A stretch of DNA of 7,996 nt from a virus (taxonomy: Duplodnaviria > Heunggongvirae > Uroviricota > Caudoviricetes): the IMG/VR virus record IMGVR_UViG_2609459791_000005, positions 1-7,996 of that record, one strand, 5' to 3'. Below are positions 6,829 to 7,996 of this stretch, in pieces (position 1 is the first letter of the stretch; every line of letters begins with the position of its first letter). The position numbers and the translations under genes were made by a program. Below the pieces are notes generated by a model, which was not told the DNA's origin, made no database searches, and worked only from the letters and a program-made list of their open reading frames with translations.

Positions 6829-6947
6829 AATTATGCCTCACTGTATTGACAACACAGAGCCTGAAGCTCTGACCTACTGTTTCACCCATGATCCATGCTG
6901 GGGTAATCTAACAACGTTGCGCTGTGTGTAAGATGAGCAATGCATAG

Positions 6948-7996
6948 GGAAGGTGCGAACAAGTTCCTGATATGAGATCATCATATTCATCCGGAGCGCA
7001 TCCCAGAGGGACATCATGAGCCATCAACTCACCTTCGCCGATAGTGAATTCAGCACTAAGCGCCGTCAGACCCGAAAAGAGATTTTCCTCTCCCGCATGG
7101 AGCAGATTCTGCCATGGCAGAATATGACCGCTGTCATCGAGCCGTTTTATCCCAAGGCGGGCAATGGCCGACGGCCCTATCCGCTGGAGACCATGCTGCG
7201 TATTCACTGCATGCAGCATTGGTACAACCTGAGCGACGGTGCCATGGAAGATGCCCTGTACGAAATCGCCTCCATGCGCCTGTTTGCCCGATTATCCCTG
7301 GATAGCGCCCTGCCGGATCGCACCACCATCATGAATTTCCGCCACCTGCTGGAGCAGCATCAACTGGCCCGTCAATTGTTCAAGACCATCAATCGCTGGC
7401 TGGCCGAAGCAGGCGTCATGATGACCCAAGGCACTTTGGTGGATGCCACCATCATTGAGGCACCCAGCTCTACCAAGAACAAAGAGCAGCAACGCGATCC
7501 GGAGATGCATCAGACCAAGAAAGGCAATCAGTGGCACTTTGGCATGAAGGCCCACATTGGTGTCGATGCCAAGAGTGGCCTGACCCACAGCCTGGTCACC
7601 ACCGCGGCCAACGAGCATGACCTCAATCAGCTGGGTAATCTGCTTCATGGAGAGGAGCAATTTGTCTCAGCCGATGCCGGCTACCAAGGAGCGCCACAGC
7701 GCGAGGAGCTGGCCGAGGTGGATGTGGACTGGCTGATCGCCGAGCGTCCCGGCAAGGTAAAAACCTTGAAGCAGCATCCGCGCAAGAACAAAACGGCCAT
7801 CAACATCGAATACATGAAAGCCAGCATCCGTGCCAGGGTGGAGCACCCGTTTCGCATCATCAAGCGGCAGTTCGGCTTCGTGAAAGCCAGATACAAGGGG
7901 CTGCTGAAAAACGATAACCAACTGGCGATGTTATTCACCCTGGCCAACCTGTTTCGGGTGGACCAAATGATACGTCAGTGGGAGAGATCTCAGTAA
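6948..7996 (+). mobile_element. IS5-family insertion sequence, left end and transposase gene; right end lies beyond the window
   Basis: Terminal inverted repeat GGAAGGTGCGAACAAG at 6948-6963 followed by the characteristic IS5 leader and transposase ORF. A full IS5 is about 1.2 kb, so roughly 150 bp is cut off by the window end. Confidence 0.85.
7016..7996 (+). CDS. insH: IS5 transposase (DDE family)
   Basis: 326-aa [39 protein letters not shown]... is nearly identical to recalled E. coli IS5 InsH, with scattered substitutions. The stop codon is the last three bases of the window. Confidence 0.9.

Follow-up and report, generated by a model that had tools for sequence, protein, structure and literature searches.

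The P1-like stretch of DNA analysed here carries an ISKpn26-type element of the IS5 group inside imcA, in the immC immunity region, an allele (imcA::ISKpn26) that points to the RCS47/pE2 sublineage of P1-like phage-plasmids. By its position the element separates coi and imcB from P1coi, the only known promoter of coi, from which we infer that the immunity switch is biased toward repression. Throughout, the window denotes the whole stretch of 7,996 nucleotides. The coordinates of the immC genes, their control sites and the inserted element are collected in Table 1, together with the P1 sites that map beyond the insertion point.

Table 1. immC genes, control sites and the inserted element in the window, and the corresponding P1 features (L001 is the P1 record AF234172)
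Feature	Position	Strand	Basis or remark
c1, C1 repressor of lytic functions, 283 aa	5657..6508	-	NCBIfam NF041318; aligned with P1 c1.100
Pc1 (P99a) promoter with bivalent operator Oc1ab (6592-6619)	6576..6619	-	P1 annotation, L001 2419-2462, offset 4157; identical to P1
coi, C1 inactivator, 69 aa, intact	6619..6828	-	open reading frame
Oc1c, operator inside coi, ATTGCTCTAACGCTTTA	6775..6791	-	P1 annotation, L001 2618-2634; 12/17 of consensus
imcB, 31 aa, intact	6794..6889	-	identical to P1 ImcB
imcA 3' remnant, last 12 codons and stop	6908..6947	-	P1 imcA, L001 2751-2864; 'imcA, part 2' of RCS47
ISKpn26-type IS5-group element, first 1049 of 1196 bp	6948..7996	+	left inverted repeat GGAAGGTGCGAACAAG, 68-bp leader, transposase gene
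Transposase gene, 326 aa	7016-7996	+	NF033581; Pfam DDE_Tnp_1, DUF772
imcA in P1	L001 2751-2864	-	AF234172 annotation
P1coi (former P99d) in P1	L001 2903-2932		AF234172 annotation
Oc1d in P1	L001 2910-2926		AF234172 annotation
Oc1e in P1	L001 2993-3009		AF234172 annotation
P4cre in P1	L001 3009-3038		AF234172 annotation
lox in P1	from L001 3053		AF234172 annotation

Identity of the inserted element

The left end of the element, GGAAGGTGCGAAC, can be read in the window from 6948, and the distance from there to the coi start codon (6828, minus strand) is 119 bp, which confirms the coordinates of the original prediction, that an IS5-family element lies 119 bp upstream of coi. The transposase gene is oriented away from coi, and the window terminates at its stop codon, the right 147 bp of the element lying beyond 7996. 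The encoded protein scored 367 bits against the NCBIfam model NF033581 (transpos_IS5_4, IS5 family transposase; cutoff 140), as expected of an IS5-type DDE transposase, and 123 and 75 bits against Pfam DDE_Tnp_1 and DUF772, respectively. Compared with K-12 InsH, 320 of 325 residues (98%) were identical, the changes being S14T, V38T, E39A, R249K and A315V.

At the DNA level the element was 94% identical to K-12 IS5 in the coding part and 91% identical over the whole element, with a clearly diverged 5' leader, where the K-12 comparison copy was nmpC::IS5 of a phage 434 isolate (L008). Its identity with copies named 'IS5-like element ISKpn26 family transposase' by PGAP was 99.4-99.9%. With the PGAP names as the reference, the element is closer in sequence to ISKpn26 than to IS5 proper, and the earlier suspicion of a variant transposase from outside K-12 was well founded. 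In pE2 and phi456, where the junction is identical, the complete element measures 1196 bp and has the right terminus TTCGCACCTTCC; the terminal repeats GGAAGGTGCGAA...TTCGCACCTTCC are present at both ends in these two relatives, and the window holds the left one. As read in the relatives, these repeats and a 4-bp target duplication, along with insertion in a regulatory region, are features shared with the IS5 of E. coli K-12, as compared with nmpC::IS5 and with the promoter-proximal insertions at bgl, fucAO and flhDC. On sequence similarity, then, the element belongs to the IS5 family, IS5 group, and is of the ISKpn26 type.

The element interrupts imcA

Comparison with P1-family references revealed that the region upstream of coi normally consists of imcB, a continuous imcA and then P1coi with Oc1d. 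When window positions 5600-7996 were searched against phage genomes by megablast, the IS-free P1-family genomes (P1, P7, phiW39, SJ46 and JL22) aligned through 6947 and no further. This break in homology, at query position 1348, corresponds to L001 2790 in P1, and the alignment thereby shows the element interrupting imcA after codon 26. The original prediction had placed the element in the upstream control region of immC; it does lie upstream of coi, but it is not merely upstream of immC, imcA itself being interrupted.

The target duplication is ATAG, the left copy of which occupies 6944-6947. In pE2, where both ends of the element can be read, the sequence is ...GCATAG/GGAAGG...CCTTCC/ATAG CTGTAATGCC..., and at the empty sites of JL22 and P1 ATAG occurs once, ahead of CTGTAATGCC. 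ATAG was found duplicated at every IS-bearing site at which both junctions were read. The length of 4 bp seen in the relative pE2 fits IS5, and only the first base of ATAG departs from the target consensus (YTAR, or C(A/T)A(G/A) in PMC11677980). ATAG had been described as a non-canonical IS5 target; this is correct to the extent of that one base, and the deviation is small and no anomaly.

Next to the element, the original prediction had also seen a C1-operator-like half-site, ATTGCTC. The heptamer exists (GAGCAAT at 6935-6941, ATTGCTC on the minus strand), and it lies in the imcA reading frame, at codons 27-29 (...A/T-L-L...), equally so in P1. The C1 operator consensus is an asymmetric 17-bp sequence, ATTGCTCTAATAAATTT, in which TAA comes right after ATTGCTC. 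Extended to a 17-mer, ATTGCTCATCTTACACA (6925-6941), the candidate matched this consensus at 9 of 17 positions and lacked the TAA at positions 8-10, and the P1 annotation has no protein_bind feature at the homologous L001 2768-2784. A search of the window with the consensus at up to 3 mismatches returned only the lpa operator (1859-1875) and Oc1a, which matches at 14 of 17 positions. The window holds five copies of the heptamer itself, where 1.6 are expected, and one of them is inside the IS transposase gene. The half-site was accordingly rejected as a C1 operator and is treated as a chance occurrence in imcA coding sequence; weak binding of C1 there is conceivable, since the annotated Oc1b matches the consensus at only 10 of 17 positions.

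Control sites retained with c1 and displaced from coi

The C1 protein matched NCBIfam NF041318 (phage_rep_C1) end to end with 608 bits. Pc1, Oc1ab and Oc1c stay with c1 and coi, and all are identical to P1, so that of the features that define a P1-type immC region, c1 with Pc1 and Oc1ab is present. The second feature, coi, imcB and imcA under the C1-controlled P1coi (P99d) with Oc1d, is disrupted: imcA is split and the IS stands in the place of P1coi and Oc1d. In P1 and the relatives, P1coi, Oc1d, Oc1e, P4cre and lox are all found across the insertion point from coi, past the end of the window. Thus the suggestion that the native upstream promoter and operators are displaced holds for P1coi/P99d with Oc1d, and also for Oc1e, all of which are beyond the IS. 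As applied to c1, the same suggestion of a loss of native control fails: c1 keeps its own control through the intact Pc1, Oc1ab and Oc1c.

A hairpin on the minus strand at 6780-6799, with a 7-bp stem (CGTTAGA CATTGC TCTAACG) followed by a T-rich run, encloses Oc1c within coi and is shared with P1. It may have a bearing on the way in which Oc1c restricts read-through into c1.

The same insertion in related phages and plasmids

The closest known system is the phage RCS47 (FO818745/NC_042128), reported as an SHV-2-carrying phage (PMC5241659). It shares imcA::IS5D(ISKpn26) with the window, site and orientation included, and is 99.4% identical to it over 5600-7996; its GenBank annotation reads 'imcA, part 2', imcB, coi, c1 and 'transposase InsH, IS5D'. 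In RCS47 the copy is broken by IS1, with dmsA and more cargo behind it, a stretch that would lie past the end of the window. The window has a pacB deletion and a C1 D228G change that RCS47 lacks. Solo copies of ISKpn26 in imcA were found in pE2 (NZ_CP086663) and phi456 (OR339795), at 99.7-99.8% identity over 5600-7996, and in p2-S1-ZIM-01-A (NZ_CP145673), at 98.7% identity over the whole window. In pE2 the ATAG-flanked element is followed by the rest of imcA, an intact P1coi/Oc1d, Oc1e, lox, cra and cre. These relatives differ from the window in the pacB and ant regions, pE2 having a truncated ant and p2-S1-ZIM-01-A a full-length pacB. The phi456 record annotates the transposase as two separate ORFs. 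P1 (AF234172) and JL22 (ON018986), at 95.4% and 99.5% identity, share with the window the order c1, Pc1/Oc1ab, coi, Oc1c, imcB, imcA, but have no IS, a continuous imcA, and P1coi/Oc1d 113-142 bp past the point at which the IS starts.

Searches with 80-bp queries showed that the junction is widespread. Within PLSDB, 78 records had the left junction, 109 the right junction and 564 the unoccupied site, and the left junction was present in 64 of 5426 complete E. coli genomes, on plasmids in all but one case (63 of 64). At least 80% of 5600-7996 was spanned by 92 records. Hosts other than E. coli were E. fergusonii, E. marmotae and one Cronobacter sakazakii. The left-junction matches in PLSDB were 97.5-98.8% identical and all below 100%, reflecting a window-private SNP at 6916 and, in some records, one more mismatch; the nearest records were NZ_AP027501 and pE2.

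These data go against the original prediction on a point that it had itself put forward as refuting: many P1-family references have the same IS at the same position, with the operators on the far side intact. With this junction shared by roughly 80-110 public plasmids and two sequenced phages, the insertion is most likely an inherited lineage marker, judging from sequence, and not newly made or private. They also make it scarcely credible that the junction is a chimera assembled from a P1-like contig and a multicopy IS. Such an artefact might be suspected from the abundance of IS5-group copies (more than 5000 plasmid records) and from a window that ends inside the IS with only the left junction in view, but the left junction recurs in the plasmids, complete genomes and two phages counted above, and matching right junctions with the ATAG duplication also exist in relatives, which effectively refutes it.

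Two architectures were found at the site, a solo 1196-bp IS (pE2, phi456 and p2-S1-ZIM-01-A) and an 8.5-kb composite (L007 and RCS47). The composite consists of an ISKpn26 hit by IS1, a dmsABC-dmsD-ferredoxin operon (4Fe4S; DMSO-reductase-like) and a second ISKpn26 (L007 10041-18583; L002 4349 onward). The IS thus marks a point of cargo entry in the relatives, namely of the dms operon, with further cargo beside it in RCS47. The IS in the window is compatible with either architecture, and P1coi may therefore be 1.2 kb away, 8.5 kb away or absent. A solo IS could be either a recombinational remnant or a precursor of the composite.

The flanking SNPs give no clean tree. Three c1 SNPs are common to the IS-bearing plasmid L006 and the IS-free JL22, suggesting recombination, or repeated gain and loss, among P1-like plasmids and blurring the picture of a single ancestor. 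The simplest reading of these sequences is that one insertion event was followed by spread through descent and recombination.

Promoter and terminator content of the region between the element and coi

An initial promoter scan missed the genuine Pc1, and the results below are from a custom weight-matrix scan for which P1coi and Pc1 served as positive controls. P1coi scored 12-14 bits in P1, and Pc1 scored 7.55 bits in both the window and P1. The best candidate in 6829-6947 reached 7.5 bits, in agreement with the earlier statement that this interval has no convincing σ70 promoter, nothing of the strength of P1coi being found. The candidate, CTTACA-16-TAGATT with an upstream TG, runs from 6932 to 6905 on the minus strand, within the imcA remnant and just ahead of imcB. 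The sequence is native to P1, where it is conserved but unannotated, and the window-private SNP at 6916 falls in its spacer. Across the window the scan gave 56 sites of 7 bits or more in about 16 kb, roughly one per 285 nt, so finding one in 119 bp is close to chance. Nonetheless, judged by its sequence, the site could supply some coi transcription.

The left end of the IS showed no outward or hybrid promoter, the initial scan returning 0 sites and the weight matrix at best 2.9 bits; within the first 100 nt of the IS the best score was 3.6 bits. Four terminator-like hairpins lie on the minus strand of the IS, where 1.4 ± 1.2 would be expected; one of them, about 100 nt into the element, is AGCCTATTTAGGCT with ATTTTTTCC after it. 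The hairpins are short, at 5-6 bp. Published work on IS5 describes little activity of its internal promoters, and other reports describe terminator-like sequences and premature termination (PMC11677980).

Predicted effect on the coi switch

Expression of coi has been reported from one promoter only, P1coi, which is strong and repressed by C1. Mapped on P1 and the IS-bearing relatives, the IS adds at least 1.2 kb between imcB-coi-c1 and P1coi/Oc1d, and at least 8.5 kb separates them in the composite relatives. We propose that, after infection or derepression, transcripts from P1coi would run, antisense to the transposase gene, into the right end of the IS, where they would probably terminate. 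Most transcription of coi and imcB would then be lost, with little or no Coi or ImcB made, while C1 would be made only from the autoregulated Pc1, with Oc1ab and Oc1c untouched. The switch would not be dead but would lean toward repression, and so toward lysogeny and plasmid maintenance.

Any such phenotype must be mild, as induction, plaque formation and lysogenisation all persist in relatives that carry this insertion. The phage phi456, sequenced from particles, forms plaques on MC1061, and its spontaneous release reaches about 10^7 PFU/ml (PMC10967188), which indicates that the effect of the insertion is tolerated; RCS47 is another sequenced phage carrying the IS. In a CRISPRi screen, coi and imcB were nonessential (PMC10695390). 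Two considerations run against the proposed loss of coi expression. Transcription from P1coi could possibly read through the 1.2-kb IS, the hairpins being short, and phi456 is described as having 'high spontaneous induction', about 1e-5 to 1e-4, in figures given without an IS-free control (PMC10967188), which is the opposite of what a bias toward repression predicts. Decay of coi as a sign of silencing was considered and set aside as uninformative: Coi was identical in six relatives (the five IS-bearing ones and the IS-free JL22), with 67 of 69 residues identical to P1 Coi, and no decay was seen in any relative, with or without the IS.

A less favoured alternative, to which we give a minor share of our confidence, is that the insertion is neutral for regulation, coi and imcB being expressed at near-normal levels from the site at 6932-6905 or by read-through of the IS, which would then be a hitch-hiking marker and a landing pad for cargo. 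That the candidate site equals Pc1 in score and is native P1 sequence, that the IS hairpins are weak, that Coi is intact and invariant among the relatives, and that phi456 and RCS47 are working, sequenced phages are all consistent with this alternative. Its promoter, however, is of a kind found near chance frequency, and neither the P1 annotation nor PMC8546580 names a promoter there. Moreover, the site has no overlapping C1 operator, so regulation from it would still differ from that of the wild type.

Activation of coi by the IS, as IS5 acts at bgl, glpFK and flhDC, would instead lead to more Coi and more spontaneous induction, and we consider it very improbable. [quoted passage not shown] Against this, the bent-DNA/IHF region of IS5 is in its 3' (right-hand) part (PMC11677980). 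The matching end of the present element is about 1.1 kb from coi and faces P1coi and cre, which makes IS5-style activation unlikely; the left end has no outward or hybrid promoter, and the 119 bp show no sign of a silenced promoter. The precedent of bgl and flhDC activation, to which the original prediction had appealed, is therefore unlikely to apply to coi. The two situations also differ in kind, as the bgl insertion activates a normally unexpressed operon, whereas the imcA insertion is polar and splits genes from their promoter. We thus retain the separation of coi and imcB from P1coi as the preferred reading.

In the relatives with a solo IS (L003 5545-5690), P1coi fires into the right end of the IS, in the direction of the IS5 ins5CB operon. 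An external promoter driving ins5CB doubles IS5 transposition (PMC11677980). By analogy, derepression of the prophage might stimulate transposition of this IS, if ISKpn26 has equivalents of ins5CB.

Changes private to this copy

Apart from the SNP at 6916, the window has two changes of its own. Measured against its closest relatives, it has lost 1212 bp (L006 7265-8476), the ends being joined at 4264. Gone with them are PacB residues 197-494, or 60% of pacB, together with the spacer that precedes an icd-like gene; residues 1-196 of 494 survive in a fusion ORF, 3677-4531. None of the 5426 complete E. coli genomes contained this junction. If the deletion is real rather than an assembly error, the element probably cannot package its DNA. 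The question of the switch is for this reason partly moot for this copy, in which the state of the switch would matter mainly for plasmid stability. The second change is a C at 5826, where seven relatives including P1 have T, giving D228G at c1 codon 228.

Between pacB and c1, the window has an icd-like gene and a 372-aa ant (antirepressor) gene at 4288-5624. In P1, pacB directly abuts c1, and in pE2 and phi456 ant is cut to a KilAC fragment.

Implications for P1-like phage-plasmids

The insertion itself is real but ordinary: it is inherited, and the phages that carry it still work. The allele is already in public records and is annotated in RCS47. Across the P1-like phage-plasmid papers searched, the insertion is not mentioned, and its regulatory consequence seems to be undescribed.

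Of the 78 plasmids with the IS junction, 47 were classed as 'mobilizable', as against 54 of the 564 with the empty site; sizes above 110 kb were seen in 42 of 60 listed plasmids of the first group and in 8 of 40 listed plasmids of the second. A size of 110 kb, taken here as roughly the packaging limit of P1, is exceeded by many members of the sublineage. An apparent enrichment of the IS-bearing lineage in oversize hybrid plasmids is only a lead, as the sampling is clonal (farm and hen series).

A broader and more speculative idea, which we think doubtful, is that imcA::ISKpn26, by disconnecting coi from its promoter, stabilises the plasmid state of a successful sublineage and so favours the accumulation of cargo (the dms operon, resistance regions and cointegrates), making it a step from phage toward plasmid or, equivalently, an indication that induction and natural spread do not require Coi.

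Should coi indeed be silenced, about 1 in 7 P1-like plasmids in PLSDB (78-109 occupied sites versus 564 empty ones) would be without the anti-repressor arm of the switch. The allele would then provide a natural test of the C1/Coi/Lxc model (PMC8546580) and might be a factor in the persistence of resistance-carrying phage-plasmids.
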